Shown piece after piece: positions 4,350-64,000 of a stretch of DNA of 64,000 nucleotides (position 1 is the first letter of the stretch; each line of letters opens with the position of its first letter). Source of the DNA: an uncultured Clostridia bacterium (lineage in GTDB: Bacteria > Bacillota > Clostridia > TANB77 > CAG-508); contig CANRHQ010000003.1 of assembly GCA_947630445.1 (NCBI GenBank), forward strand, positions 11,733 to 75,732, written 5' to 3'. The notes beneath the pieces were generated by a model. It had not been told where the DNA came from. It was given only the letters and a program-made list of their open reading frames with translations, and did no database searches. A program made the position numbers and the translations under genes.

Positions 4350-5732
4350 TTAGAAATCTATTTTATTTTGTATCCATTTTTCTAGTTCATCTATTTTTAC
4401 TCTTTCTTGTTCCATTGTGTCTCTATCTCTTATAGTTACAGAATTATTTTCTAGTGTTTCAAAATCTACTGTTATGCAATATGGTGTTCCTATTTCATCT
4501 TCTCTTCTATATCTTTTTCCTATTGAACCTGTTTCATCATATTCACACATGAATTTTTTACTTAATTGAGAATACACTTCTTCTGCTTTTTCTGATAATT
4601 TTTTTGATAATGGTAATACTGCTACTTTATATGGTGCTAATGCTGGATGTAAGTGTAGGACAACTCTTGTTTCTCCATTTTCAATTTCTTCTTCATCATA
4701 ACTATTACATAAAAATGCTAATGCAACTCTATCTGCTCCTAATGATGGTTCTATACAATATGGTACATATTTTTCATTTGTTTCTGGATCTAAATAAGTA
4801 AAATCTTCATTTGATACTTTCATATGGTTAGTTAAATCATAATCTGTTCTATCAGCAATTCCCCATAATTCTCCCCAACCAAATGGGAATGCATATTCTA
4901 TATCAGTTGTTGCTTTACTATAAAATACCAATTCTTCTGGACTATGATCTCTTAATCTTATATTTTCTTCTTTCATTCCTAAATCTAATAACCATTTTTT
5001 ACAAAAACTTTTCCAATATTCATGCCACTCTAAATCAGTTCCTGGCTTACAGAAAAATTCTAATTCCATTTGTTCAAATTCTCTTGTTCTAAATGTAAAG
5101 TTTCCTGGTGTTATTTCATTTCTAAATGCCTTTCCTATTTGTGCAATTCCCATTGGCAATTTTTTTCTTGTTGTTCTCATTACATTTTTAAAATTTACAA
5201 ATATTCCTTGTGCTGTTTCTGGTCTTAAATAAATTTCAGCTTTTGCATCTTCTGTAACACCTTGAAATGTCTTAAACATTAAATTAAATTTTCTGATTCC
5301 TGTAAAGTTATGTTTGCCACAATTTGGACAACATATATTGTGTTCATCCATATAATCTATCATTTCTTTATCTGTCATTCCATCTGCAATCATATCTTTT
5401 CCATTTTCATGAGCCCATTCTTCAATTAATTTATCTGCTCTATGTCTAGTTTTACATTCTTTACAATCTATTAATGGATCTGAAAATCCACCAACATGAC
5501 CTGATGCTACCCATGTTTGTGGGTTCATTAATATTGCTGCATCTAATCCAACATTATATTTACTTTCTTGTATAAATTTCTTACTCCATAATTTTTTTAC
5601 ATTATTTTTAAGTTCTACTCCAAGTGGTCCATAATCCCATGTATTAGCTAATCCTCCATATATTTCTGAACCAGGATATATATATCCTCTTGCTTTACAC
5701 AAATTTACTATTGTGTCCATTGATTCTACCAT
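4350..5732 (-). CDS. glyQS: Glycine--tRNA ligase (single-chain GlyQS type)
   Basis: 460 aa. Contains ...[25 protein letters not shown]... and class II aaRS motifs. AAGGAGG RBS. A T-box leader lies upstream. Confidence 0.93.
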
Positions 5733-8529: not shown

Positions 8530-8985
8530 TTAAACAAATAATAATTTTAAAACAAGTACTACAACTGTCATTGTAGTCATAGCTGTATCCATAAATCCAG
8601 TTGTGGTCTCTCCTACTTCATCTACTACAGAAATTTCATAAGATTTTATGTCTGATATTTTAAAATATGTTTCTATATTTTTTGTTTGGCTTTCACTCAT
8701 ATTTCCAATCTCTATGTATTGAGTACCTAATATATTTTCATCAGCTGAATATAAATCTATTTTTAAATATTTTCCACTAAGTTCTGGATTACTAATATTT
8801 AATTTTATTCTACCATTTACTTTTGTAGATTGCATTTGTACAACTTGTACTCCTGTAGGTAGCTGTCCTCTTTTTTCCATATTTTTATATGTTGAGTTTA
8901 TTCCTGTATATATTAATATATCTGAAAGTATCCAGAATAATATAATCCATATCGCATATTTTGCAAATTGTTTTAATCTGTCCAT
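8530..8985 (-). CDS. Hypothetical membrane protein (TM helices at both ends)
   Basis: 151 aa, flanked by hairpin terminators. No recognisable motif. Confidence 0.5.
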   Translation of the reverse strand: MDRLKQFAKYAIWIILFWILSDILIYTGINSTYKNMEKRGQLPTGVQVVQMQSTKVNGRIKLNISNPELSGKYLKIDLYSADENILGTQYIEIGNMSESQTKNIETYFKISDIKSYEISVVDEVGETTTGFMDTAMTTMTVVVLVLKLLFV

Positions 8986-9104
8986 ATTTAATTCTCCTTT
9001 TATAATATTAGACTTATTATACTATATTTTTCCTTTATTTGCAATATAAAACTTGTAACAATGTAATGATTTTAAAATATAATATACAAATGAAAGGAGT
9101 TATT

Positions 9105-9776: not shown

Positions 9777-9810
9777 AAGATGTAAATATCTTAAATTTAC
9801 ATCTTTTTTA
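9775..9810. terminator. Bidirectional hairpin terminator between convergent prx and GT2 genes
   Basis: AAAAGATGTAAAT (9775..9787) pairs with ATTTACATCTTTT (9795..9807), with A/T runs on both sides. It overlaps both stop codons. Confidence 0.6.
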
Positions 9811-10483
9811 TTATAATTTTAAAATGTCTAATTCCATCTCGAACTGTTCTTAAATGCGATTTTCCATTTCTTTTATCTTTGTAAAAATTTATTGGAACTT
9901 CTGCCATTTTAATATTTTGTTTTCTTGCTTTTATAATCATTTCTGTTGCTAACTCCATACCTTTTGAATTACATCCGATTTCTAACATTTTTTCTGTATC
10001 AAAACCTCTTAATCCACAGTTAAAGTCTCCTATACTTATATCATATTTTTTTCTAGCTATCCAACTTATTAGAGGTGTTCCTATATATCTATGCAAAAAC
10101 TTCATTGCCCCTTTTTCCATATTTCCTTTGAATCTATTGCCAATTACCAATTGATATCCTTCAAGTAGTTTCTCATATATAGGCAATACTTCTAATAAAT
10201 TATAACTATCATCAGCATCTATCATTATAGTATATTTTCCTTTAGCCAATCTAATTCCTTCTCTTATTGCTACACCATATCCTCTTTCTTCCACAGTTTC
10301 TGTTCTAGCACCTAAACTTTTAGATATTTCCTCTGTATTATCAGTGCTTCCATTATTTATTACTAATATTTCTCCATTTATATTATTTTCTTCTAAAAAT
10401 TTTTTTCCTTTTTCTATACATATTGCTATTGTTTTTTCTTCATTAAGTGCTGGTATTAATATTGTTAAATCTAATTGGTTCAT
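9797..10483 (-). CDS. Family 2 glycosyltransferase (polyprenol-phosphate sugar transferase-like, soluble form)
   Basis: 228 aa. LTILIPALNEE...NNGSTD...DADDS motifs. Overlaps the upstream gene by 4 nt (ATGA-type coupling). Confidence 0.85.
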   Translation of the reverse strand: MNQLDLTILIPALNEEKTIAICIEKGKKFLEENNINGEILVINNGSTDNTEEISKSLGARTETVEERGYGVAIREGIRLAKGKYTIMIDADDSYNLLEVLPIYEKLLEGYQLVIGNRFKGNMEKGAMKFLHRYIGTPLISWIARKKYDISIGDFNCGLRGFDTEKMLEIGCNSKGMELATEMIIKARKQNIKMAEVPINFYKDKRNGKSHLRTVRDGIRHFKIIIKKM

Positions 10484-11820
10484 TTATATTCTCCTTTTTT
10501 ATTATCTTTTTTAAAATTAATTTCCTTTAATAGTAATTTATAATTTAAGCAATCTATAATTATATAAAAAAGTGCTATTATTGTTATAATTTGTTCTCTA
10601 AATGTAAAAAAAGAATGATAATATGAATGACTCACAAGTATTAAATATCTCATATATGGCATAACTGATATAAAAAGCAATATTAAAGAAAACCATTTTT
10701 TTCTTATGTTTTTCCAGTCAATACTTATTATTAAAACAAATATACTTATTAATACAATTTTTAATATATCTGATTTTCTCTTTATAATATTTATTGGATA
10801 TAAATTATGAAAATTCTCATACAATGATCCTATATATAATTCTTTTGTACTTATATATCCTTTTTTTCCATTAATTCTAAATAACAAGTTATCTTTTACA
10901 TAATCTAGTGCATTTATATTTAATATAATTGATGCTAAAAGCCATTTTGTTAGCCACATTGCAACATACGCTATTCCCCATATTACACAACTTTTTATTA
11001 GAAATATAATTTCTTCTTTTATTGTCTTTATTCTTCCTTCTTCTTTTCTAACTAATAATACTAACAACATTGGTACTAAAAATGTTATTAATTCCGTTGT
11101 TAAAAAATCAAAGAAACATGTTAATATTCCTGTAATAAAAAATAGTTTGTATAATAATTGATTTCCCTTTTTTTCTATTTGTATTGCAATTATACTTACA
11201 ATTAACATTATATAAAATGTCCATGAATATTCTAAACAATATGGTACAATTGGAAATGCAATTAATATCATAGAAATAATATATATTATTGCTATTTTTT
11301 TACTTTTTCTTAATAATATAAAGAAAAGTAATATAGCAAGCATCCATAATAAAATTTTATTTAAAAGGTATATTTCTTCTATATTAAAAATTGTTAAAAG
11401 TGGTCTTAAAATTACAATACTTCCATGCCAATATCTTATATATTGTTGATTTGGCTCTTTTTCTTCTTTTATTGATTTTATAAAATCATAGTTTACATCT
11501 GCATAGGATTTTTGATAATATTTATCTACCATTACTGATTCAAGTGGTTTACTTGAATCAATATTATTTATTATATTTAGAATTATTGTGTCTGCATAAT
11601 AATGTACAAATGTATATTCTCTTCTTTTTAAAATCTCTTCCATTCCAGATCTTTTTTCAAAAAATGGTACAGACTCTTTTAAGTTTTCTTGTATAGCACT
11701 TTTGGGAATTAATGATGTAATAATTAATAAAAATAATACTACTAAAACTGTAAATACAAAGTACATTATATATTTTATTATTTCTACTAATGTATTTTTT
11801 ATTTTAATAGCATTGAACAT
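10480..11820 (-). CDS. Polytopic membrane protein (about 10 or more TM helices); possible GT-C-type glycosyltransferase, by context only
   Basis: 446 aa and highly hydrophobic. AAAGGAG RBS. Translationally coupled to the GT2 gene. The function is inferred, not recognised. Confidence 0.7.
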   Translation of the reverse strand: MFNAIKIKNTLVEIIKYIMYFVFTVLVVLFLLIITSLIPKSAIQENLKESVPFFEKRSGMEEILKRREYTFVHYYADTIILNIINNIDSSKPLESVMVDKYYQKSYADVNYDFIKSIKEEKEPNQQYIRYWHGSIVILRPLLTIFNIEEIYLLNKILLWMLAILLFFILLRKSKKIAIIYIISMILIAFPIVPYCLEYSWTFYIMLIVSIIAIQIEKKGNQLLYKLFFITGILTCFFDFLTTELITFLVPMLLVLLVRKEEGRIKTIKEEIIFLIKSCVIWGIAYVAMWLTKWLLASIILNINALDYVKDNLLFRINGKKGYISTKELYIGSLYENFHNLYPINIIKRKSDILKIVLISIFVLIISIDWKNIRKKWFSLILLFISVMPYMRYLILVSHSYYHSFFTFREQIITIIALFYIIIDCLNYKLLLKEINFKKDNKKGEYK

Positions 11821-11873
11821 ATCAAAAATTTCTCCTTTTCTTTATTTTTATTTTAATATTATTTTACAAATTT

Positions 11874-11902
11874 ATTCTAACAATAAAGTATACTATTTGC
11901 AA
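11874..11902 (-). promoter_or_regulatory. Fixed-orientation promoter of the membrane-protein/GT2 operon, paralogous to the promoters inside the three invertible cassettes
   Basis: The minus strand reads ATAAAGTA-TTGCAA-ATAGTATACTTTATTGT-TAGAAT (17-nt spacer with an extended TG). The cassettes carry ATAAAGTA-TTGCAA-TTAGTATATTTTATTGT-TAAAAT. Confidence 0.65.
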
Positions 11903-11922
11903 TACTTTATAAGGAAAATCTT

Positions 11923-12006
11923 TTATGATGTAATAATTAATGAAAATAGTACTATTAAAATTGTAATACAAAATACTTTGCATTTCATTTTAATAGTACT
12001 AAACAT
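11923..12006 (-). repeat. Remnant copy 1 of the 5' end of the 446-aa membrane-protein gene (with RBS remnant)
   Basis: The minus strand reads ATG TTT AGT ACT ATT AAA ATG AAA ... = MFSTIKMKCKVFCITILIVLFSLIITS*. This is homologous to MFNAIKIKNTLVEIIKYIMYFVFTVLVVLFLLIITS of the real gene at 11820. The plus-strand ORF 11702..12010 in the track is its antisense shadow. Confidence 0.75.
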
Positions 12007-12038
12007 ATAAAAAATTCTTCTTTTATTTGTTTTTGCAA

Positions 12039-13190
12039 TTATTCTTCTAATGTTATATTTGAGTCTTCAGAACGAGTTTCATATATTTCTCTTAATTTAG
12101 GACAAGTTCCTTTTAATACTAAATTAGCATCTGGATTAGTAGAAGCATTTTGCAAGCAATCATAATAGTATATACAATCAGATGAATTAATAATTAATTC
12201 TCCAGTAAGACAATAACATTCACAGAAACACATACGCAAATCATCAACAAGCATTGGAATCGTCGGAGCAGTAGTTAATGAAACACAACCGTTAAAAGTA
12301 GAGGTCATCGAAGTAACCGTAGATGGAATCTCAGGTGCAATAACTAAATCTTCACAATTCAAAAATGTGCTACTCATGTTAATAACTTCATACCATTCAT
12401 CCTCTCCATCTACCTTTATATACTGAGGAACTTTTCCTTGTATCTTCCCTTCAACAATATTTGAATTATCATATCCTGGAGACGCACTACAACCAGACAC
12501 CTCATTTAAAGCAAATCCCTTAACAGTACCATCAAACATCAGAATCTTTCGATACCTCCAAAGATCTAAATTAACTGAATTTCCATCTGTTCCTATTCCA
12601 ATATCTCCATTTTCTGGACTTTGACTTGGATGTTTTTTTGCATTTTCTTTAGCTGCCTCCCAGTCTATTTCTGTTGTTGAATCTGATATACTAGTTATAT
12701 ATCCTATTTCTTCCATATTCTCTTTTTTATCATAATATACTAATATATATTCTTCTGTAATTCTTTCACTTGAAAGTTTTACATTTTCTATACTTGCTAC
12801 TTTTGATAATTTATCACTTTCTTCTAACTTATATACATCCTTTGTTCCAGTTCCGTTTCCATATGCTATTGTTTTTCCTAGTAAATTATATATATTTACT
12901 GTATAATCATCATTTACAAATCCTTTTCTTTGTAAATATTCCATTAAATGTTCATTTAAACCTATTGCCTCTTTTTCTACCATATAATTTTGTACTTCTA
13001 TTTGTAATCCTTCATATACTTCTGCATGTGCATTTTTTGTTTTTGCTTCTTTTGAATTTGTTATTATTCCACTATCTCCTGCTAACATTGCAATTGATGT
13101 TCCTGCTAATATTAGCAATACTACAATAGTAACTACTAATGCTATTAGCGTTATACCATTTTGTTTTTCTCTTGTTTCTTTCTCTTTCAT
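12039..13190 (-). CDS. Pilin-like-N-terminus surface/secreted protein with BspA-type leucine-rich repeats (paralog A)
   Basis: 383 aa. N-terminus MKEKETREKQNG-ITLIALVVTIVVLLILAG has a short charged leader ending in G followed by a hydrophobic helix, which is prepilin-like but lacks Glu at +5. C-terminal repeats follow the pattern STF.nC..L..AP.IP..V..M.STFNGC.SLTTAP.IP. AAAGGAGGAACC RBS. Confidence 0.85.
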   Translation of the reverse strand: MKEKETREKQNGITLIALVVTIVVLLILAGTSIAMLAGDSGIITNSKEAKTKNAHAEVYEGLQIEVQNYMVEKEAIGLNEHLMEYLQRKGFVNDDYTVNIYNLLGKTIAYGNGTGTKDVYKLEESDKLSKVASIENVKLSSERITEEYILVYYDKKENMEEIGYITSISDSTTEIDWEAAKENAKKHPSQSPENGDIGIGTDGNSVNLDLWRYRKILMFDGTVKGFALNEVSGCSASPGYDNSNIVEGKIQGKVPQYIKVDGEDEWYEVINMSSTFLNCEDLVIAPEIPSTVTSMTSTFNGCVSLTTAPTIPMLVDDLRMCFCECYCLTGELIINSSDCIYYYDCLQNASTNPDANLVLKGTCPKLREIYETRSEDSNITLEE

Positions 13191-13214
13191 TGGTTCCTCC
13201 TTTATTTGTTTTTT

Positions 13215-13411
13215 CTTAATCTCTATAATTAAAGAAAAATAAAAAAGATGTAAATAACTAAAAATATGTATATTTACATCTTTTCTTGATTTTTAATTTT
13301 CATAATTTTATAAAAATATTTCTAAAAAAATTTTTTTCATAAAGTATTGCAATTAGTATATTTTATTGTTAAAATTATTTTATGAATAAATCTTTAATTA
13401 TAGAGATTAAG
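13215..13411. promoter_or_regulatory. Candidate invertible promoter cassette (inverton) A
   Basis: Perfect 21-bp inverted repeat: CTTAATCTCTATAATTAAAGA at 13215..13235 and its reverse complement at 13391..13411. The 155-bp interior holds a hairpin (13243..13256 / 13271..13284, AAAAGATGTAAATA / TATTTACATCTTTT). It also holds a plus-strand promoter: TTGCAA 13347..13352, 17-nt spacer ending TGT, TAAAAT 13370..13375. The promoter points away from gene A. Confidence 0.7.
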
Positions 13412-13515
13412 GATTTTTTTGTTCTGTAAAATAATAATGTATTTATTTTTATATTCATTTTTTATAATGATATATTTCCTTTTAAATTTTCTTCTATCAT
13501 ACTTTTGCGAATCAA

Positions 13516-13596
13516 TTATGTAATAATTAATAAAAATAGTACTATTAAAATTATAATACAAAATACTTTGCATTTCATTTTAATAGTACTAAAAAT
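13516..13596 (-). repeat. Remnant copy 2 of the 5' end of the membrane-protein gene (start codon mutated to ATT)
   Basis: Near-identical to remnant copy 1: ...AGTACTATTAAAATGAAATGCAAAGTATTTTGTATTATAATTTTAATAGTACTATTTTTATTAATTATTACATAA on the minus strand. Track ORF 13505..13750 is its antisense shadow. Confidence 0.7.
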
Positions 13597-13620
13597 ATTA
13601 AAATTTTTCCTTTTTTTCTA

Positions 13621-14766
13621 TTATTCCTCTAATGTTATATGTGATTCCTCAGAACGAGTTTCATATATATCTTCTAAATTAGGACAAGTTCCTTTCAATA
13701 CTAAATTAGCATCTGGATTAGTAGAAGCATTTCGCAAGCAGCCATCATAACCATACCAACCATCAAGCAACTCAGCCGAATTAATAATTAATTCTCCAGT
13801 AAGATTACTGCATCCATAAAAGCAATAACTCAAATCTCTAACTTGTGTTGGAATCATTGGTGCAGTAGTTAAACTTTTACAGTCATTAAAAGTCGAAGAC
13901 ATGTAAGTAACTGTATCAGGAATATCAGGTGCAATAACTAAATTAGAACAACTATAAAAAGTCGCAAGCATATAAGTAACAACACGCCATTGGTCTTCCC
14001 CAGCTACTTTTATATATTGAGGAACTTTTCCTTGTATTTTCCCATCAACAATATCAGAATTCTGATATGCTGGTTCTGAAAAGCTACCCATACTCGCACA
14101 CAACACAATTGAATTGTCTCCTTCCTTTTGATACTTCCAAAGATCCATATTAACTGGATTTCCATCTGTTCCTATTCCAATATCTCCATTTTCTGAACTT
14201 TGGCTTGGATGTTTTTTTGCATTTTCTATAGCCTTTTCCCAGTCTATTTCTGTTGAATCTGATATACTAGTTATATATCCTATTTCTTCCATATTCTCTT
14301 TTTTATCATAATATACTAATATATATTCTTCTGTAATTCTTTCACTTGAAAGTTTTACATTTTCTATACTTGCTACTTTTGATAATTTATCACTTTCTTC
14401 TAACTTATATACATCCTTTGTTCCACTTCCATTTCCGTATTCTATTGTTTTTCCTAATAAATTATATATATTTACTGTATAATCATCATTTATGAATCCT
14501 TTTCTTTGTAAATATTCCATTAAATGCTCATTTAAACCTCTTGTCTCTTTTTCTACCATATAATTCTGTGTTTCTATCTGTAATACCTCATACACTTCTG
14601 CGTGTGCATTTTTTGTTTTTGCCTCTTTTGAATTTGTTATTATTCCATTATCTCCTGATAACATTGCAATTGATGTTCCCGCTAATATTAATAATACTAC
14701 AATCGTTACTACTAATGCTATTAGCGTTATACCTTTTTGTTTTTCTCTTGTTTTTTCCTCTTTCAT
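13621..14766 (-). CDS. Pilin-like-N-terminus surface/secreted protein with BspA-type leucine-rich repeats (paralog B)
   Basis: 381 aa. The first ~205 aa and the last ~30 aa are nearly identical to paralog A. The central LRR-bearing part has diverged. Same RBS and leader. Confidence 0.85.
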   Translation of the reverse strand: MKEEKTREKQKGITLIALVVTIVVLLILAGTSIAMLSGDNGIITNSKEAKTKNAHAEVYEVLQIETQNYMVEKETRGLNEHLMEYLQRKGFINDDYTVNIYNLLGKTIEYGNGSGTKDVYKLEESDKLSKVASIENVKLSSERITEEYILVYYDKKENMEEIGYITSISDSTEIDWEKAIENAKKHPSQSSENGDIGIGTDGNPVNMDLWKYQKEGDNSIVLCASMGSFSEPAYQNSDIVDGKIQGKVPQYIKVAGEDQWRVVTYMLATFYSCSNLVIAPDIPDTVTYMSSTFNDCKSLTTAPMIPTQVRDLSYCFYGCSNLTGELIINSAELLDGWYGYDGCLRNASTNPDANLVLKGTCPNLEDIYETRSEESHITLEE

Positions 14767-14790
14767 TGGTTCCTCCTTTATTTGTTTTTT

Positions 14791-14984
14791 CTTAATCTTT
14801 GTAATTAAAGAAAAATAAAAAGATGTAAATAACTTAAATATGTATATTTACATCTTTTTTGATTTTTAATTTTCATAAATTTATAAAAATATTTGTAAAA
14901 AATTTTTCCTCATAAAGTATTGCAATTAGTATATTTTATTGTTAAAATTATTTCATAGAATAATCTTTAATTACAAAGATTAAG
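14791..14984. promoter_or_regulatory. Candidate invertible promoter cassette (inverton) B
   Basis: Perfect 21-bp inverted repeat: CTTAATCTTTGTAATTAAAGA at 14791..14811 and its reverse complement at 14964..14984. Hairpin at 14818..14831 / 14845..14858. Plus-strand promoter: TTGCAA 14920..14925, 17-nt spacer, TAAAAT 14943..14948, pointing away from gene B. Confidence 0.7.
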
Positions 14985-15014
14985 GATTTTTTTCATTTAT
15001 TTTTTATATTAATA

Positions 15015-17762
15015 TTATTCATCTTTAGCAGTATTTAGTTTTAATAATTTTAATATCTCGACTATTACAATTGGTGCTAATATTAGCAATATAATTTCTA
15101 AAATATTTCCCATTGGCAAAACTGGTATACTAAATATATGTCTTAATGCAGGAACAAATAAAATTACACCCATTAGTATAGCTGATACTAATACTGCAAG
15201 AATTAATACGCCGTTTCCCAATATTCCTGTTTTAAATATTGACTTTTTATTATCTCGTATATTAAATACATGAACTAATTCAGAAAAAGCTAATACTGTA
15301 AATGCCATTGTTTGACCAACTTCAACTTTTAATTGTTCAGTTGTTAGTTGTGCCAAATCAGAATTATTAGCTTTTAATAAATCTATTGCATCATTTGGTA
15401 TTGCAAGACCTATTAAAAATGCTATAAGTGTAAGTAAACCTATCATTATACCTTGATATATAATTCTAAATGTTCTTCCTTTTGTAAATATCCCTTCATT
15501 TTTCTTTATAGGTTTTCTATTCATTATATCTTTATTTGCTGGATCAAATGCTAATGCTAATGCTGGGAATGTATCTGTTACTAAATTTATCCATAAAATA
15601 TGAATTGGTAGTAATACTTGTAGCATTGCTACATCTGATATTCCAAAGCATTTTGCAATTATAGGTGCAAATAATGTTGCTAATAATAAAACTACTACTT
15701 CTCCAACATTACAAGAAATTAAAAATTGTATTACTTTTAATATGTTGTCATATATTCTTCTTCCTTCTTCTACTGCTGATACTATTGTTGCAAAGTTATC
15801 ATCTGTTAATATTACATCTGCTGCTTCTTTTGCAACTTCTGTACCAACTTTTCCCATTGCACATCCTATATCAGAAGTTTTTAATGCTGGACTATCATTT
15901 ACTCCATCACCTGTCATTGCAACAATTTCTCCATTTGCTTGCCATGCTTTTACTATACGCACTTTATGTTCAGGTGATACTCTTGCATATACTGAATATT
16001 TTCTTATATCTCTCTTTAATTCCTCATCAGAAATTTTTTCTAATTCTGCTCCAGTTAAAGCCTCACTATCATTTTCTAATATTCCTAACTTCTTTGCTAT
16101 TGCTACTGCTGTAACTTTGTGATCTCCTGTAATCATTACGGTTTTTATTCCTGCTGTTTTACATTTTTCTACTGCTTTTTTAGCTTCTTCTCTTGGAGGA
16201 TCTATCATTCCAACCATTCCAATAAATGTTAAATCTGTTTCAATTGTTTTCATTTCTTGTTTAGTTGGCATATGGTCAATCTCTTTATATGCAAATGCTA
16301 ATACTCTTAATGCTTCTTTTGCCATGTTTTCATTGTTTTCTCTTATTATTTTAGCATATTCATTTAAGTCTTTTTTTACTTCACCATTATATAAATATGA
16401 ATTACATATTCTTAATAATTCATCTACTCCACCTTTTGTATATACTATATATTTTCCATTATTCTCATTAACTGTTGTCATCAATTTTCTTTCAGAATCA
16501 AATGGTACTTCTTCTACTCTTTTATTCTCCTCATATATTTCTTGCTTATATTTCAATTTTAATGCCATATCTACTAATGCTGTTTCTGTTGGGTCTCCTA
16601 CTAATTCTCCATTTTCTAGTAATCTTGTGTCATTACATAACATACAATTATATATCATTTTATCAAATTCTTCTGTTTTTTCTGTCTTGCTTACATCTGT
16701 TGTTTTATTATTGCAAAATATTTTTTCTACTGTCATTTTATTTTGAGTTAATGTTCCTGTTTTATCTGAACATATTACAGTACTACTACCTAAAGTTTCT
16801 ACAGCTGGTAATTTTTTTACAATAGCATTTTTCTTAACCATTTTTTGGACTCCTATAGCTAATACTATTGTTGATACTGCTACTAATCCCTCTGGTATTA
16901 CTGCTACTGCTAAAGATACTGCTGTCATAAACATATCTATTATACCTTTACCTTGTAGCAATCCTATTATAAATATTATTGCACATATTGTTAATGCTGC
17001 AATTCCTAAAGTTTTTCCTAAACTATTTAACCTTTGTTGAAGTGGAGTTTCTTGTTTTTCTGTTTCATTTAACATTCCTGCTATTTTTCCAACTTCTGTA
17101 TTCATTCCTGTTTCAACAACTATTGCCTTTCCTCTACCATATGTAATAAGACTTGATGAAAATAGCATATTGATTCTATCACCAACTCCTACTTCTTTGG
17201 CATTTAATTCTTGTGTTTCTTTTTCTACAGGTACTGATTCTCCAGTTAATGAAGATTCTTGTGCTTTTAAATTTATTGCTTCTATGATTCTTAAATCTGC
17301 TGATACATAATCTCCTGTTTCTATTATAACTAAATCTCCTGGCACTAATTCTCTAGCTGGTATAACTTGTTCTTTTCCATCCCTAATTACTTTTGCAGCA
17401 TGTTCACTCAATTTTTTTAATGCTTCTAATGATTTTTCTGCTTTACTTTCTTGTATAACTCCAATTATTGCATTTAAAAGTACTACTATTAGAATTATTA
17501 CTGTATCTGTTATTCCTTCTCCTTCTGCTACTCCTACTATTCCAGATACTATTGCTGCTATTATTAAAACAATTATTGAAAAATCTTTAAATTGTGCAAT
17601 AAATTTTTGAAATAATGTTTCTTTCTTTTTTTCCTTTAATTCATTTAATCCATATTGTATTTTATTTTCTTCTACCTTATTGCTTTCTAATCCTCTACTT
17701 AAATTTGTAGATAATTCTTGTTCAACTTCCTTAATAGTTTTATTAAACCATTGTTTTTCCAT
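15015..17762 (-). CDS. P-type Ca2+-transporting ATPase (PMCA/SERCA-like, P2 type)
   Basis: 915 aa. Motifs CSDKTGTLTQNKM (phosphorylation site), TGES, MITGDH, TGDGVNDSPALK, and ten TM helices. Confidence 0.9.
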   Translation of the reverse strand: MEKQWFNKTIKEVEQELSTNLSRGLESNKVEENKIQYGLNELKEKKKETLFQKFIAQFKDFSIIVLIIAAIVSGIVGVAEGEGITDTVIILIVVLLNAIIGVIQESKAEKSLEALKKLSEHAAKVIRDGKEQVIPARELVPGDLVIIETGDYVSADLRIIEAINLKAQESSLTGESVPVEKETQELNAKEVGVGDRINMLFSSSLITYGRGKAIVVETGMNTEVGKIAGMLNETEKQETPLQQRLNSLGKTLGIAALTICAIIFIIGLLQGKGIIDMFMTAVSLAVAVIPEGLVAVSTIVLAIGVQKMVKKNAIVKKLPAVETLGSSTVICSDKTGTLTQNKMTVEKIFCNNKTTDVSKTEKTEEFDKMIYNCMLCNDTRLLENGELVGDPTETALVDMALKLKYKQEIYEENKRVEEVPFDSERKLMTTVNENNGKYIVYTKGGVDELLRICNSYLYNGEVKKDLNEYAKIIRENNENMAKEALRVLAFAYKEIDHMPTKQEMKTIETDLTFIGMVGMIDPPREEAKKAVEKCKTAGIKTVMITGDHKVTAVAIAKKLGILENDSEALTGAELEKISDEELKRDIRKYSVYARVSPEHKVRIVKAWQANGEIVAMTGDGVNDSPALKTSDIGCAMGKVGTEVAKEAADVILTDDNFATIVSAVEEGRRIYDNILKVIQFLISCNVGEVVVLLLATLFAPIIAKCFGISDVAMLQVLLPIHILWINLVTDTFPALALAFDPANKDIMNRKPIKKNEGIFTKGRTFRIIYQGIMIGLLTLIAFLIGLAIPNDAIDLLKANNSDLAQLTTEQLKVEVGQTMAFTVLAFSELVHVFNIRDNKKSIFKTGILGNGVLILAVLVSAILMGVILFVPALRHIFSIPVLPMGNILEIILLILAPIVIVEILKLLKLNTAKDE

Positions 17763-18147: not shown

Positions 18148-20469
18148 CTATTCTTCTTTCTTTTTCTTTAAATTTACAACAATTGCATTTTCATTATCAA
18201 ATATAAAATTTGAATCTGTTGTATCTGTTTGGACAGGATTAACTTCCTGTTTTTCATCTGTAAAGTTTACATTTTTTGGATTAAATTTTATTTTTGTTGA
18301 ATCATCTGGTTCATTATTTGTAACACCTGGTGTAAATTTTGTAAAGTTATATATTTTTACAGGTTGTTCTTCTTTATATTTTGCACCTATAAAATCTAGT
18401 TTTGCTTCACCTATATCATATGAACCATAATCATTTTTCAACTTTAATGCTCCTATTTTGAATCCTAAAGTTGCAAGTTTATTTACAGGGAAATATAACT
18501 CCCAATCATATTTTACACCGCCCCATTTTGGATCATAAGAATTAGTTTTGGTATCCAAACTCTGTGAATATATCCATGTCCTTCTCTTATAGAATTCACT
18601 TGACCACCATTCTAGTTCTTCTGTTACTGCATTTCCTAGGAATAATTTATTTGCACAATTTGATAATATTGTATCTTTATATTTTAATTTTGGTGAGTTT
18701 CCTTCTAATTGTGCTAAGTTTTGTGCTGTTATTGTTGTTCCAACTTTATATTTACGATATAGTGTAAATATTGCTTCTGTATCTTTACATATAAAATCTG
18801 GAAATTCATCTATATATAAGAAATGTGGTATTCTACTACTTTCATTTCCTGGTCTTCTTAATACACCCATTTGCATTGAAAGTATAAAGAATAATCCGAA
18901 TGCTTTATGACTAGTTCTTCCTAAATCTCCTCTACGAGTACATACTAATGTTACTTCACCATTTGCTAATGCTTTGTCAAAATCTATATTATTAGTTCTT
19001 TTACAAAGAATTGCCTTAACTCCTGGTAATCTTAATAAATTATCTAGTTGTGATACAGCTAAATATATATATTTCTCTGTATCTGCTTTTCCTGGACCAT
19101 CAGCATAAAAATTCTTTTTGAAATACTCTATTTGCATACTATATTTTTCTGCTAATTCCTCATCATTTCTCATTATTTCGCACATTTTTTCTACTAAGTC
19201 AAAGTTTGTAAGCATTTTTAACATATCTTCTAGATTTGGTAAATTTCCACCATTTATTCTAGGATACATTTCTTTTAACATAATTGTTAAATTTTCTATT
19301 GCTTGAATTATATATTCTTCTCTGTATGAATCCTCTATTTCTGGATGATTATTTACATACATTCCTTTTAATGCTGATGATATTGTTATTGCTATTTTTG
19401 AAGCATCATCATAAACAAATGGATTTAATCCAATTGAATCACTACTTCCTGGATCTATCAAATTATATTTTATATGAAAGTTTTTACAAACATTCATTAT
19501 TTTAGAAGTTGATTCAAAGTCAGGTGCTATTGATGTTATACCTACATTTCTATAAATAAATTCATTTCCAAATGATGATAATATCATTTTATTCATATAA
19601 GCCTTATAAACAGTTTCTTTACCATAAGCTGGTGTAAGCATATTTAAATCAAAATTCTCATTTAGATAATCATTATCATATGGTTTATTTAATGTGGCTA
19701 TACCTGTTTTTAATGCTGTATATCCCATTTCCTTTGCATTTGCTATATAAAATGCTTTCTTTTCAATATCTTTTGCCATCATTGGTTCTAGTACTAAAGT
19801 AGTTTTTCCTGTTCCTGAACCTCCACATACAAATAATGATTGATATCTCTTTTGTTCGAAAAATGTCATTTTTCTACCAGTTTCAAACTCTGTACAAAAT
19901 AACATATCACATGTAAATGGTCCATGTCCTGCTTTAGAATCTGCTAAACTTATTCCTCTATAATCCCATAAAGATCTTTTTGCATCTTTACTATCATTAA
20001 TTTTAAATACAATCCACTTTATTACTGAATAAAATGTCGTTAATGGTAAGTATAGTGCTAATGCTGTAAATGCTGGTCTAATTAATTCTGAAAAGTCTGT
20101 AACTAACTCTGTATATCCAGGCATTGATATTAAAAAGAGCCATGCTGCTTGATTAATCCATTGTACAAACATTGATAATGCTATTACATATAAAGTAACT
20201 ATGTATGTTAAAAATAATGTTATTTTTATATTTTTTGATGAAGCAAATTCTGATGTTGGTGAAAATAAAAATGCAAAAACCGGACATGCAAGTGCTAATG
20301 TGTATCTAATTGGTCCCCAATATGAAACAGATACACCTGTAAACACTAAAAATAACATTTCTACTACTCTATCAACTAATATGTATAATGAAATCAATGT
20401 TAATACATAAGTTGCAAATGTATTTCTGCTAGCATTTAGTTTCTTTAAAAATTTATCTATTATTTTCAT
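18148..20469 (-). CDS. Membrane-anchored VirD4/TraD/TraG-like type IV coupling-protein ATPase (orphan)
   Basis: 773 aa. About 5 N-terminal TM helices, Walker A VCGGSGTGKTTLV, Walker B-like HFLYIDEFPDF, then GTTITAQNLAQLEG. This is the T4CP arrangement hhhhDE...Q..xQL. Confidence 0.7.
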   Translation of the reverse strand: MKIIDKFLKKLNASRNTFATYVLTLISLYILVDRVVEMLFLVFTGVSVSYWGPIRYTLALACPVFAFLFSPTSEFASSKNIKITLFLTYIVTLYVIALSMFVQWINQAAWLFLISMPGYTELVTDFSELIRPAFTALALYLPLTTFYSVIKWIVFKINDSKDAKRSLWDYRGISLADSKAGHGPFTCDMLFCTEFETGRKMTFFEQKRYQSLFVCGGSGTGKTTLVLEPMMAKDIEKKAFYIANAKEMGYTALKTGIATLNKPYDNDYLNENFDLNMLTPAYGKETVYKAYMNKMILSSFGNEFIYRNVGITSIAPDFESTSKIMNVCKNFHIKYNLIDPGSSDSIGLNPFVYDDASKIAITISSALKGMYVNNHPEIEDSYREEYIIQAIENLTIMLKEMYPRINGGNLPNLEDMLKMLTNFDLVEKMCEIMRNDEELAEKYSMQIEYFKKNFYADGPGKADTEKYIYLAVSQLDNLLRLPGVKAILCKRTNNIDFDKALANGEVTLVCTRRGDLGRTSHKAFGLFFILSMQMGVLRRPGNESSRIPHFLYIDEFPDFICKDTEAIFTLYRKYKVGTTITAQNLAQLEGNSPKLKYKDTILSNCANKLFLGNAVTEELEWWSSEFYKRRTWIYSQSLDTKTNSYDPKWGGVKYDWELYFPVNKLATLGFKIGALKLKNDYGSYDIGEAKLDFIGAKYKEEQPVKIYNFTKFTPGVTNNEPDDSTKIKFNPKNVNFTDEKQEVNPVQTDTTDSNFIFDNENAIVVNLKKKKEE

Positions 20470-37348: not shown

Positions 37349-38896
37349 CTACAAGTACAAACCGATACGAAATCCATAGTATTCAGAACAGCTAGAGGGA
37401 TCCTCCTCATCCCACTTATTCGCCGTTAAACCGGCCATTCCCGAACCAACATGACCGTAGTAACCACCTCTAAGGCAAAGTTTAACACCATTTTTGACGT
37501 ATAGTTTTGTCCATTCTTCTACATTTCCTGCTAAATCATATATATTATTTGCTTTGGTATTTGGAAATTGTCCTGTTTTTATTAAATCATCTGTTCCTGA
37601 AAATGTATCATCTTTATAATTCCCCCAACTTGTACTGTCAAATCCTATTTCTTCTATTGTTTTATTTCCTGTTTCATATAACCATCCTAATGTTCTATCC
37701 CATGCTGCTCCTGTTAATAATGAACTTGTTGCATTTGTTCCTACACTTTTTGCATATCCTTCTGCTTTAGTTAATGCTTCTGTTTGTGTAATCCAATTAT
37801 ATACATATTTATTTTTTTGTGTTACTAATGTTCCTTCTTTTGATTCAGTTCTTATTTGATTTGCTAATGAATCTCCTGCTTCATATCTTCCTATATAAAA
37901 TCCTCCATTTTTATTGACACTGGTTTTGTAATTATCTTCTGGGTCTTCGTATTCAGTGAATGAAGTTTTATATTCGTTTTTAAAAATCGCTAAAAATTCT
38001 TCTCGACTCATTCCAGATGAATTTAATAAATCTTCTAATTTCATACCCAATGCTTCATACATACTTTCAACCTGTTTAAGAAGTAATTCATCTGTCATCC
38101 AAAAATTTTGTGCATATAAACTATATACTTCTAATGTTTTACTTGTTTCTCCTTTACTTGTTGTTACTTTTATTTTATATTCTCCATTTATTGTTGGCTC
38201 TATTTCTTTATTATATGTTTTTCCTAGTTGTTCATTATCTTCTGATAATATATCTTCTCCGGATGGGTCTGTTACTACTATACTTGTTATTTCTTCTTTA
38301 CTTTCTACTTTTGCAGTTATCTTTTGATCTTTTTCTACTGGCACCCATACAAATTGATTTCCAACTAACTCTGCATCTACTCCTTTTCCATTGTCCTCTT
38401 CACTATCAGATATTACATATCCCTCATTTATGCTTCCTCCTACATGATAAAATCCTTCTGGTATTGGTGGATTTTCTACTTTTGTTCCTTTTATTGTTAA
38501 ACTTATGCTTACATCAGATTTTTCTGCTTCTTCTACTTTTCCATTTTTATCTATTGTATATACATTACTACTTGGAAATGTTACCTTGAAGTTGTTTCCG
38601 TCTTCTTCTACTGTTATTCTATCATCATATTTTTTTAGTTCATCTTCAAGTTGTTTTCTTGTTACTCCTTGTCCATTATTACCAGCTATTACTGCACTAT
38701 ATGATAATTTTACTTGTTCTTTTTCTTCTCCTATTTTTGTTTCTTCTTTTGCTCTTTGTGATTGCCTTATTATTCCATTATCTCCTGCTAGCATTGATAT
38801 ACTTACTCCTGCTAGTATTAATAAGACTACTATTGTTACTACTAATGCTATTAGCGTTATACCTTTTTGTTTTTCTCTTGTTTCTTTCTTTTTCAT
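37349..38896 (-). CDS. Pilin-like-N-terminus secreted protein with C-terminal FGE/SUMF1-like (formylglycine-generating-enzyme fold) domain (paralog C)
   Basis: 515 aa. The N-terminus MKKKETREKQKG-ITLIALVVTIVVLLILAG is nearly identical to paralogs A and B. C-terminal motifs FYIGRYE, AAWDRTLGWL, NIYDLAGNVEEWT, LRGGYY and YGFRIGLY match the FGE-sulfatase domain pattern. Confidence 0.85.
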   Translation of the reverse strand: MKKKETREKQKGITLIALVVTIVVLLILAGVSISMLAGDNGIIRQSQRAKEETKIGEEKEQVKLSYSAVIAGNNGQGVTRKQLEDELKKYDDRITVEEDGNNFKVTFPSSNVYTIDKNGKVEEAEKSDVSISLTIKGTKVENPPIPEGFYHVGGSINEGYVISDSEEDNGKGVDAELVGNQFVWVPVEKDQKITAKVESKEEITSIVVTDPSGEDILSEDNEQLGKTYNKEIEPTINGEYKIKVTTSKGETSKTLEVYSLYAQNFWMTDELLLKQVESMYEALGMKLEDLLNSSGMSREEFLAIFKNEYKTSFTEYEDPEDNYKTSVNKNGGFYIGRYEAGDSLANQIRTESKEGTLVTQKNKYVYNWITQTEALTKAEGYAKSVGTNATSSLLTGAAWDRTLGWLYETGNKTIEEIGFDSTSWGNYKDDTFSGTDDLIKTGQFPNTKANNIYDLAGNVEEWTKLYVKNGVKLCLRGGYYGHVGSGMAGLTANKWDEEDPSSCSEYYGFRIGLYL

Positions 38897-38917
38897 TGTT
38901 TCCTCCTTTATTTGTTT

Positions 38918-39119
38918 TCCTTAATCTTTGTACCTTAAAGAAAAATAAAAAGATGTAAACAACTTAAATATGTATATTTACATCTTTTTATTGATTTTTA
39001 ATTTTCATTATTTTATAAAAATATTTGTAAAAAAATTTTTTCCATAAAGTATTGCAATTAGTATATTTTATTGTTAAAATTATTTCATAGAATAATCTTT
39101 AAGGTACAAAGATTAAGGA
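38918..39119. promoter_or_regulatory. Candidate invertible promoter cassette (inverton) C
   Basis: Perfect 24-bp inverted repeat: TCCTTAATCTTTGTACCTTAAAGA at 38918..38941 and its reverse complement at 39096..39119. Hairpin at 38948..38961 / 38975..38988. Plus-strand promoter: TTGCAA 39052..39057, 17-nt spacer, TAAAAT 39075..39080, pointing away from gene C. Confidence 0.7.
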
Positions 39120-39184
39120 TTTTTTCACTTGGCAAATCAGAACAAATTAAAAAGAATGTTTCCTGTTGAATACAGAAAACATTC

Positions 39185-62593: not shown

Positions 62594-62899
62594 CTATTTT
62601 CCACAATTACAATCATTTGAATTCATGTCTAAATAGTTTCCATCATTCATATAGAATTTCTTTTCTGATAATTTGTCTTGTACTCCTCTTAATGCTTCTC
62701 CAAACCTTTGGAAATGAACTATCTCTCTTTGTCTTAAAAATCTCAATGGGTCTATTACTTCTGGATTATCTCTGCATAAGTTTATTAGTTTTTCATAAGT
62801 TGCTCTTGCTTTTTGTTCTGCTGCTAAATCTTCTTGAAGATTTGCAATAGCATCACCTTTACATGCAATATATGCTGCTGTGCTATTAAGGATACCATT
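62594..62899 (-). pseudogene. cotJC: 3' fragment (about 100 codons) of a CotJC-like manganese catalase gene, truncated at an element junction
   Basis: Hand translation of the minus strand gives NGILNSTAAYIACKGDAIANLQEDLAAEQKARATYEKLINLCRDNPEVIDPLRFLRQREIVHFQRFGEALRGVQDKLSEKKFYMNDGNYLDMNSNDCNCGK*. It aligns with the B. subtilis CotJC C-terminal half (...ASYIQAKGDPIADLYEDIAAEEKARATYQWLI...LRFLREREIVH..RF.EA). The frame hits TAA immediately upstream, inside the recombinase gene's end, so no N-terminal half is present here. Confidence 0.75.
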
Positions 62900-64000
62900 A
62901 GTTATTACTTATTTTTGAGAAAACTAATTTTAAATTTATGTTACGATTACTGTCAAATTCGATTTTATCTATCAAATTACTCAATATCTGTTTAGTTACC
63001 TTGTTTGTGTTTAAAAATTCCTCAGATAGCTTTTTAATTTGATTATAACTTATTGTATTTTTATTTTTCTCAAGCTTTATTTTCTGTTCTAAATCACAAA
63101 TTTGCTTTTTACATTTTTCAATGTCATTTTCTTTTTGAGCTTTAATTGATAAAAAAGTTTCATTATTGATAATATTTTCAAGTTTATCATTATAGGTAAT
63201 TTTTATCTGTTCATTTATTTTATCTATTTTAGCAAGTAACCCTTGTTTTTGATCTTCTAATCTATGGCATTCATAATTAATGCTTTTTTCTAAGTTATTC
63301 ATAACAGTTTTTATATCATTATCATTAAAAGAAATATTTTTACATTCTTTTTCTATTATTGGAATTATTATATTATACAGTTTTCTACTACTTATAGATT
63401 TTGTATTATTACACTTTTTATTTGTACCTTTGTTAGCTTCAGAACAAATATAAGAGTTTATCTCGCATTTACCACCATTTTTAGTAGTTTTTTCTTTATG
63501 TTTTAATGTAGAAATACTACCACATTCTTTACAATAAATTAAACCTTTAAAAATATCATCATATTTTCTGTTTCTATTATTCTTAAATCTCTCTTTTAGT
63601 ATTTGACATTTATTAAATGTTTGTATATCAATTATTGGCTCATGCATATTTTCAACAATTATTTGATTTTCTTTAGTATTTCTAATTCTTTCTTTCCTTC
63701 TAAAACTTGGTTTTACTGTTTTTGCTCCTACCACTGTTCCAATATACACAGGATTACTAACAATTCTTGTTATTGTAATTTCCTTCCAACCTTCTGAATT
63801 TGCTTTTATTCCTTTTATTTTTAAATACTCTCTAGGTGGTATGATTTTTCTCTCATTTAAACTTTTTACTATTTCTGTGCGAGTATATCCTTTTGAATAC
63901 TTTTCAAATATTTCTTGTATAATAGTTGATACTTCACTATCAACTATTAACCTATTTTTATTATTTGAACCTTTTTTGTATCCATATGGAGCAGTGTTTC
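62898..64000 (-). mobile_element. Large serine recombinase gene (3' two-thirds; runs off the right edge) marking the end of an integrated element
   Basis: The track ORF 62898..63749 starts at an internal GTG. The frame stays open upstream to 64000 (...APYGYKKGSNNKNRLIVDSEVSTIIQEIFEKYSKGYTRTEIVKSLNERKIIPPREYL...ITRIVSNPVYIGT...). This shows the recombinase domain, a zinc-ribbon (CKECGS...C..C) and a coiled coil, the layout typical of SpoIVCA/phage-type large serine recombinases. Confidence 0.8.

Follow-up and report, generated by a model that had tools for sequence, protein, structure and literature searches.

Positions 13215-13411 of the 64-kb window (i.e., of the whole stretch of DNA that was analysed, with a G+C content of ~27 %) are likely to be, or until very recently to have been, a recombinase-driven invertible promoter (switch A), one of three paralogues encoded there. 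Switches A, B and C very probably represent a genuine inverton family, comparable in function to classical invertible promoters such as fimS and those of the Bacteroides invertons. The original prediction had read this segment as an inverton, a reading now supported by (i) the three paralogous copies, (ii) sequence changes mirrored between the paired arms of each switch, and (iii) two copies of the family in another species that are arranged in opposite orientations.

Each of the three switches is proposed to act on a single gene, the product of which would be a pilin-like surface protein anchored in the membrane. Inversion of the ~155-bp interior would be catalysed by a site-specific recombinase that is encoded elsewhere, probably of the tyrosine type as in other Clostridia, and that pairs the 21-24-bp arms. 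In the OFF state, the sigma-A-type promoter would fire away from the gene, and the hairpin in front of the ribosome binding site (RBS) would block read-through from the upstream gene. In the ON state, the promoter would face the gene, its -10 hexamer ending 60 nt before the ATG, with the hairpin now upstream of the promoter and serving as insulator.

Anatomy of the three switches

The elements of switch A, its two paralogues and a related fixed promoter are located as follows (strand given where one applies):

13191..13214, minus strand: fixed 24-nt leader with GGAGG RBS, joining the proximal arm to the start codon (ATG) of gene A
13215..13235: gene-proximal arm of switch A, CTTAATCTCTATAATTAAAGA; putative recombinase core site with outer parts CTTAA / TTAAAGA and variable centre
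13236..13390: invertible interior of switch A, 155 bp; as assembled, hairpin beside the gene and promoter facing away (OFF)
13243..13284: hairpin with 14-bp perfect stem and 14-nt loop, flanked on either side by A/T runs; putative two-way terminator/insulator
13347..13375, plus strand: promoter-like TTGCAA-17 nt-TAAAAT with TGT extended -10, inside the 43-nt block 13338-13380
13391..13411: gene-distal arm of switch A, exact reverse complement of 13215-13235
13412..13420, plus strand: GATTTTTTT flank adjoining the distal arm on its outer side, conserved in all three switches
14791..14984: switch B, 21-bp arms CTTAATCTTTGTAATTAAAGA, interior 152 bp; promoter 14920-14948 (plus strand), OFF as assembled
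38918..39119: switch C, 24-bp arms TCCTTAATCTTTGTACCTTAAAGA, interior 154 bp; promoter 39052-39080 (plus strand), OFF as assembled
11874..11902, minus strand: TTGCAA-17-TAGAAT, fixed and homologous to the switch promoter (3 mismatches in 29), no flanking repeats

The 21-bp inverted repeats that had been proposed for switch A are indeed perfect: CTTAATCTCTATAATTAAAGA occupies 13215-13235, its exact reverse complement 13391-13411, and the two enclose 155 bp. The same applies to the other elements described at the outset, which were recovered at their predicted positions: the plus-strand promoter (TTGCAA 13347-13352, a 17-nt spacer ending in TGT, TAAAAT 13370-13375), the hairpin (14-bp perfect arms 13243-13256 / 13271-13284), and gene A on the minus strand (12039-13190), which is preceded by GGAGG and has its ATG 24 nt outside the left repeat. 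A leader of ~55 nt had been expected to result from flipping, in agreement with the 60 nt between the end of the -10 hexamer and the ATG in the flipped models of A, B and C.

Among the inverted repeats of the whole window that enclose 50-600 bp, only those of A, B and C (21, 21 and 24 bp, respectively) are perfect over 14 bp or more. Since the longest such repeat in 200 dinucleotide-preserving shuffles measures 17 bp, chance can be excluded as origin of the 21-24-bp arms. Moreover, the 21-mer of arm A has four occurrences when up to 3 mismatches are allowed, as compared to 0.01 expected. Switches B and C have the layout of A and carry the same 29-nt promoter core on the plus strand; all three copies in the 64-kb window are assembled OFF, i.e., with the promoter pointing away and the hairpin on the gene side.

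The hairpin of switch A is predicted to fold with -13.3 kcal/mol on the plus strand and -15.0 kcal/mol on the minus strand (z ~ -5.4), a stability reached by 0/200 shuffles. Hairpins are significant in all switch copies (z -5.4 to -7.0). In case of the promoter, the 3.3-kb region contains 29 promoter-like sites versus 25.4 +/- 6.0 in shuffles, i.e., the hexamer pattern alone is not significant. Because hexamers are not enriched over shuffles, the promoter prediction is based on conservation: the longest block identical in all three interiors (43 nt, 13338-13380) spans exactly the -35 to -10 region. In addition, the fixed promoter at 11874-11902 is homologous to the switch promoter (76 nt at 79 % identity) and aims at the next gene (10480-11820), the ATG of which is located 53 nt from the end of the -10 hexamer. 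Thus, outside the switches the module appears to serve as a normal promoter reading into its gene, at a distance like that expected after flipping (53 nt in the fixed copy versus 60 nt in the flipped models). The promoter inside the switches is predicted to be of the sigma-A type.

An outward transcript formed in the OFF state could be stopped by the GATTTTTTT flank together with the weak dyad of the distal arm, which jointly yield a weak fold (-8.3 kcal/mol, z -1.8). The same features may be taken to indicate a static module, in which the repeats are paired operators for a DNA-looping regulator and the outward promoter yields a short antisense or non-coding RNA, all without inversion. A weak internal dyad is present in each arm (CTTAAT...ATTAAAG), and the arm plus the T-run following the outward promoter could end a transcript of ~40 nt. 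However, conservation downstream of this promoter does not extend past ~10 nt, and an Rfam search of 11700-15200 yielded no match. Evidence from the arms and from the opposite orientations (see below) also opposes a static module, which is therefore regarded as very unlikely compared with an invertible promoter.

Mirrored arm variation and opposite orientations

Within each switch the two arms are 100 % identical, all six arms thus being perfect. Between the paralogues A, B and C, arm identity amounts to 82-91 %, which is no better than that of the interiors (92-95 %). The arms of A and B differ by two substitutions, both mirrored in the partner arm, and those of B and C by one substitution and a 1-nt insertion, again mirrored. 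All of these differences are central, whereas the outer CTTAA and TTAAAGA are invariant in A, B and C. Paired operators need no mirrored asymmetric centres, yet every central change is mirrored.

Core sites of tyrosine recombinases (Cre, FLP, lambda Int) consist of conserved binding elements around a strand-exchange region that is identical in both partners, and heterospecific lox and FRT spacers work by this logic of identity. By analogy, the outer arm parts (CTTAA...TTAAAGA) may represent recombinase-binding elements and the variable centre the strand-exchange region, which would have to match between partner arms. Owing to their different centres, A, B and C would then be kept from recombining with one another, an event that would delete or invert the intervening genes. 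Since the arm centres differ, recombination would be confined to the two arms of the same switch, and each of the three would flip independently of the others.

Two further switches of the same family are located upstream of two pilin-like genes in a locus from another species (L080; ENA ERZ28614493, 25.6 % G+C), which is the locus of P0017, a distant homologue with 34 % identity:

L080, arms 4720-4740 / 4893-4913: inv1, distal arm CTTAAGTTCTATACTTAAAGA, interior 152 bp; hairpin gene-side, TTGATT-17-(TGT)TATTAT facing away
L080, arms 8858-8878 / 9029-9049: inv2, distal arm CTTAAGTTATATACTTAAAGA, interior 150 bp; hairpin distal, same promoter facing the ATG (9148)

The L080 arms CTTAAGTTCTATACTTAAAGA and CTTAAGTTATATACTTAAAGA are each 18/21 identical to arm A, and the L080 interiors cannot be aligned to those of the window (~60 % identity, corresponding to background). 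The arms of inv1 and inv2 differ from each other at one central position, which is mirrored in both arms. The layout of inv1 is that of A, B and C, and its hairpin read towards the gene represents a textbook terminator, with -16.9 kcal/mol and a subsequent U7 tract. Between inv1 and inv2, the arms are collinear, as is the flank on the gene side (71 % identity); the two interiors share 82.4 % identity when one of them is reverse-complemented versus 56.6 % in direct orientation (shuffles 57.0 +/- 2.1, maximum 62.4). Since the interiors match only in reverse complement while arms and flank are collinear, the segment has inverted exactly at the repeats since the L080 copies diverged. Judged by this sequence comparison, inversion at the arms occurs in the switch family, the two members compared being paralogues at different loci of another species. 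The same kind of evidence, a comparison of opposite orientations, first revealed the flagellar switch of C. difficile (PMC5386303). A clean arm-bounded inversion between paralogues is also at variance with the static module of paired operators described above. No recombinase was found in the 9.3-kb L080 locus.

As to the orientation of switches A, B and C themselves, independent ENA/Logan assemblies (ERZ27249662, ERZ27249187, ERZ27249651), traced via cluster members and neighbouring genes, represent one strain at ~4x coverage, with DNA 100 % identical. The possibility of the switches being an assembly artefact was rejected, the sequence being identical in these independent ENA assemblies. None of nine assembly observations contains a flipped copy (OFF in 2/2 for A, 4/4 for B and 3/3 for C), and as consensus assemblies of one strain at ~4x they report the majority state only and are blind to a minority orientation.

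Pfam and NCBIfam scans of the ~50 open reading frames (ORFs) of the window detected neither a tyrosine recombinase nor a small serine invertase. The sole recombinase encoded in the window is the following:

62898..64000 (continuing past the window end), minus strand: large serine recombinase (Recombinase + Zn_ribbon_recom; CcrB/XisF-like)

Recombinases of the CcrB/XisF type usually excise or integrate elements. The present one is encoded 24-49 kb from the switches and has no positional or sequence link to them; it was retained as a remote candidate for the invertase only. Unlinked invertases are common. In case of C. difficile cwpV, ~5 % of cells are ON in laboratory culture (~95 % OFF) and the recombinase is unlinked (PMC2784873), so that there is nothing unusual about an all-OFF consensus or about the absence of an invertase nearby.

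The chief alternative that remains is a switch that has become locked in the OFF state: A, B and C would go back to true invertons but be frozen, the recombinase having been lost or silenced and the genes being silent or otherwise expressed. The OFF orientation in 9/9 assembly observations and the lack of an invertase in the window agree with a locked switch, but the assemblies reflect the majority state of a single strain, and a largely OFF population would resemble that of cwpV (PMC2784873). Furthermore, all six arms are perfect even though the arms of the paralogues have diverged as fast as or faster than the interiors, whereas partner arms should drift apart without ongoing recombination or selection; the ORFs of genes A, B and C are also intact. 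Locked switches are therefore considered unlikely, and switch A is assumed to be still capable of flipping.

Relation to known invertible promoters

The original prediction had likened the element to known phase-variation switches, which fits the predicted internal promoter of the fimS/Bacteroides type, whereas promoter placement and repeat sequence differ from those in C. difficile. In E. coli fimS (FimB/FimE) and in the capsule and fimbrial invertons of Bacteroides (Mpi, tyrosine recombinases), an internal promoter drives the adjacent surface-structure gene in one orientation only. Bacteroides genomes also harbour several paralogous switches each, as observed here (background in PMC11892184). 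The switches A, B and C differ from these systems by repeat motif, host lineage and cargo as well as by a strong hairpin that changes side and by arm centres that differ between paralogues.

The RecV (tyrosine recombinase) switches of C. difficile belong to the same class Clostridia and have a near-identical geometry: just upstream of a gene for a surface structure, repeats of 21 bp enclose 154 bp in flgB (Cdi4; PMC5386303) and 195 bp in cwpV (Cdi1; PMC2784873), as compared to 21-24 bp flanking 152-155 bp here. Further similarities are that the recombinase gene is not adjacent to the switch in either case, that cwpV is mostly OFF in the population, and that the OFF state of cwpV involves an intrinsic terminator, to which the predicted hairpin would correspond. 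However, the promoter of the C. difficile switches is positioned upstream of the invertible segment and control is exerted after initiation (terminator in cwpV, Rho in flgB), while the promoter predicted here lies inside the segment. Moreover, the C. difficile repeats are imperfect in contrast to the perfect repeats of A, B and C, and comparison by eye of the flgB left repeat AAGTT(A/G)CTAT(A/T)TTACAAAAAA with CTTAATCTCTATAATTAAAGA revealed no convincing similarity.

Mapping of reads from a defined gut community has revealed inverton groups of Clostridia, including group 139, which is tied to a tyrosine recombinase group (PMC11892184). These intergenic invertons (~200-260 bp, ~13-25-bp repeats, surface/adhesion phenotypes) are similar to those described here; nearly all members of group 139 have an invertase within 5 kb (PMC11892184), in contrast to none in the window. 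The repeat sequence of switch A has no match in the available supplements of that study (PMC11892184). A literature search yielded no report on this repeat, or on this cargo under control by inversion.

The present switches add a repeat family with the consensus CTTAA-NN-T-N-T-R-TA-N(1-2)-TTAAAGA in an uncultured, low-GC, spore-forming lineage of Clostridia. Invertible promoters are a main route of surface variation in gut and pathogenic bacteria, and most of the characterised families stem from Bacteroidota, Enterobacteria and C. difficile. The proposed target of control is a very large, uncharacterised family of pilin-like/BspA-LRR surface proteins. Conservation of the repeat motif across species with only 34 % identical cargo offers a means of finding more switches as well as the recombinase, and the mirrored variation of the arm centres represents a natural experiment on the specificity of recombination sites. 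For metagenomics, it is relevant that assemblies break at the switches and at the repeated N-terminal module, and that orientation could be scored in existing read sets.

Cargo genes, chromosomal context and host

The genes associated with the switches and with the fixed promoter are the following:

12039..13190, minus strand: gene A, 383 aa; N-terminal hydrophobic prepilin-like helix, long helix, C-terminal BspA-type leucine-rich-repeat (LRR) domain
13621..14766, minus strand: gene B, 381 aa; paralogue of gene A with 78 % identity
37349..38896, minus strand: gene C, 515 aa; N-terminal module of A/B, different ectodomain with weak FGE-sulfatase-like match
10480..11820, minus strand: multi-pass membrane protein, 446 aa; partner gene behind the predicted fixed promoter
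9797..10483, minus strand: GT2 polyprenyl-phosphate glycosyltransferase-like protein; partner gene behind the predicted fixed promoter
13527..13601, minus strand: long AT-rich hairpin that follows gene B and is its probable terminator (-24.3 kcal/mol, z -5.9)

The products of A, B and C share the N-terminus M-K-x-K-x-T-R-E-K-Q-x-G-ITLIALVVTIVVLLILAG. A six-frame scan with the motif GITLIALVV detected this pilin-like N-terminus only three times in the window, and all three genes carry a switch, 24 nt upstream. The label 'pilin-like', as used at the outset, is only suggestive: the N-terminal helix does resemble a prepilin signal, but the Pfam N_methyl match is below threshold (18.5-19.7 bits versus a cut-off of 21.2), and the test for a class III signal peptide places the site at G|ITLIA with Ala rather than Glu at position +5. 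Genes for pilus assembly were not found in the window.

The family that includes genes A and B is very large (>5000 matches), and its members carry PF13306 (LRR_5) and PF03382 (DUF285); gene B itself remains below the threshold for LRR_5 (18.3 versus 27.7 bits). In the AlphaFold model of A (pLDDT 85.6), residues 12-76 form a long helix near the N-terminus, accompanied by a small sheet and an LRR domain; the best Foldseek matches are the BspA-type LRR proteins 4fs7 and 6mlx (probability 1.0). Based on the domains of the homologues and on these structural predictions, the products of A and B can be classified as BspA-type LRR surface proteins. Exact-protein look-ups of A, B and C returned no record, and the searchable collections contain no close relative of the three genes, the next best being at most ~50 % identical. 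A profile search with the 58-aa N-terminus retrieved only fragments of 50-100 aa from other organisms with no more than 81 % identity. Downstream of pilin-like LRR genes, relatives share the order of the two partner genes (10480-11820 and 9797-10483). A sequence similar to the hairpin at 13527-13601 is also present downstream of gene A.

The unit conserved between the three loci extends from ~10 nt outside the distal arm via the switch and the leader with RBS to about the first 45 codons, beyond which the loci are unrelated. Thus, A, B and C originate from segmental duplication of a module composed of switch and N-terminal coding region, not from transposition. The appearance of the copies is reminiscent of a MITE with outward promoter, inserted three times, considering the terminal inverted repeats of 21-24 bp, the length of ~200 bp and the multiple copies. 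However, target-site duplications or direct repeats flanking the arms are missing, both flanks are co-duplicated (~10 nt on the distal side; leader, RBS and the first ~45 codons on the proximal side), and copies occur only before one gene family. Matches elsewhere are missing as well: (i) a repeat-pair pattern scan of species-representative genomes (a set evidently without this organism) yielded 42 matches, all of them single-strand chance hits and none a true repeat, (ii) two scans of JGI metagenomes, one with the promoter core and one with both arms, gave 0 matches, (iii) a scan of viral contigs returned chance matches only, and (iv) blastn against plasmids and phages gave no match. An origin as MITE is thus extremely improbable, and duplicated invertible promoters remain the preferred reading.

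Going beyond such duplication, one may speculate that switch, leader with RBS and ~45 codons of signal-anchor form a portable phase-variation cassette, which would be joined to ectodomains of unrelated type (BspA-type LRR for A and B, FGE-sulfatase-like for C) and placed at new chromosomal sites. The arm centres would act like heterospecific lox/FRT spacers, such that a single unlinked recombinase flips each switch alone without deleting or inverting the DNA between switches, and the hairpin together with the T-run outside the distal arm would insulate the cassette transcriptionally in both states. Taken jointly, this set of assumptions is tentative and somewhat doubtful; if true, the cell would command a combinatorial repertoire of surface proteins.

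Not every member of the gene family has a switch, since other homologues have fixed promoters: no switch was found upstream of the homologues P0089 and P0047 (L044-L050) or in the sister-species locus L074. Gene C together with switch C represents an insertion, since in the sister species the RecA-RecJ-RelA-MBL-SpoIIP block is directly followed by the HhH-GPD gene. In one relative (L074), a different pilin-like LRR gene is present at the position of gene C, behind a fixed TTGACA-17-TATAAT promoter.

SpoIIP, YabG, Veg and WhiA, together with RecA relatives that are 92-96 % identical and named 'Clostridia bacterium', assign the host to a spore-forming, low-GC clade of Clostridia. This clade is common in ENA metagenomes.

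Possible transcript ends at the switch arms

In all three candidate invertible promoters, a conserved GATTTTTT(T) stands directly beyond the distal arm (switch A, 13385-13420; switch B, 14958-14993; switch C, 39090-39128) and an A-run directly beyond the proximal, gene-side arm, while each arm contains a weak dyad. The distal arm might therefore end the outward transcript of the OFF state (promoter pointing away from the gene), with the ON-state transcript passing through the proximal arm. The predicted fold is weak (-8.3 kcal/mol, z -1.8).

Relatives carry further perfect inverted repeats, each enclosing about 50 nt (L070-L079; L044-L048), which may be read either as long hairpins or as small invertible elements:

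L070-L079, e.g., L070 9820-9904: AGTTAATATATAACTAT, 17-bp perfect inverted repeat directly upstream of recA
L044-L048, e.g., L044 1462-1550: AATTGTCAATTTGCCATTA, 19-bp perfect inverted repeat upstream of spoIIIAH

Variation among the pilin-like genes

Two tracts are common to the tandem paralogues A and B (12546-12924 versus 14125-14500): one of 250 nt with 97% identity, the other of 131 nt with 91%. Such similar DNA, despite an overall protein identity of just 78%, points to gene conversion between the two genes. Contigs from other samples end within gene A at the repeats shared with gene B (L054-L056), and one further contig (L052) ends at the start of the 43-nt block common to the three switches. 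The N-terminus GITLIALVVTIVVLLILAG recurs, in a profile search, in hundreds of proteins of 50-100 aa on very short ENA/Logan contigs (P0123-P0242). The conserved N-terminal module, perhaps together with the upstream switches, may routinely break up metagenome assemblies of the clade.

Gene C and switch C (37349-39119) are missing from the syntenic site, i.e., the interval between the SpoIIP and HhH-GPD genes, in sister species (compared with L070-L074) with 96% identical RecA. In one relative (L074), the same site holds another pilin-like LRR gene with a fixed consensus promoter. This position appears to be a hot spot for the pilin-like gene family.

Fixed promoter copy and neighbouring genes

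Three further features of the window are as follows:

11874-11902, minus strand: copy of the switch promoter without repeats, predicted to drive two genes, one for a multi-pass membrane protein of 446 aa and one for a GT2 enzyme (window 9797-11902)
18148-20469, minus strand: 773-aa protein with TraG-D_C/T4SS coupling-protein domains
62898-64000, minus strand: large serine recombinase (Recombinase and Zn_ribbon_recom domains; CcrB/XisF-like), its ORF continuing past the window end

The top NCBIfam matches of the GT2 enzyme are AglJ/PpgS-like polyprenyl-phosphate glycosyltransferases, at scores well under the cut-offs. The order of pilin-like LRR gene, large multi-TM protein and GT2 is repeated in distant relatives (L044-L050, and L080 of another species with two switches), which suggests lipid-carrier-dependent glycosylation of the pilin-like LRR surface proteins.

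Several small ORFs that match no family, and the gene of a non-specific endonuclease, precede the serine recombinase. The region may represent the border of a mobile element or of a sporulation-excised element. The 773-aa protein adjoins a P-type ATPase upstream of switch B, a position kept in the strain's other assemblies.
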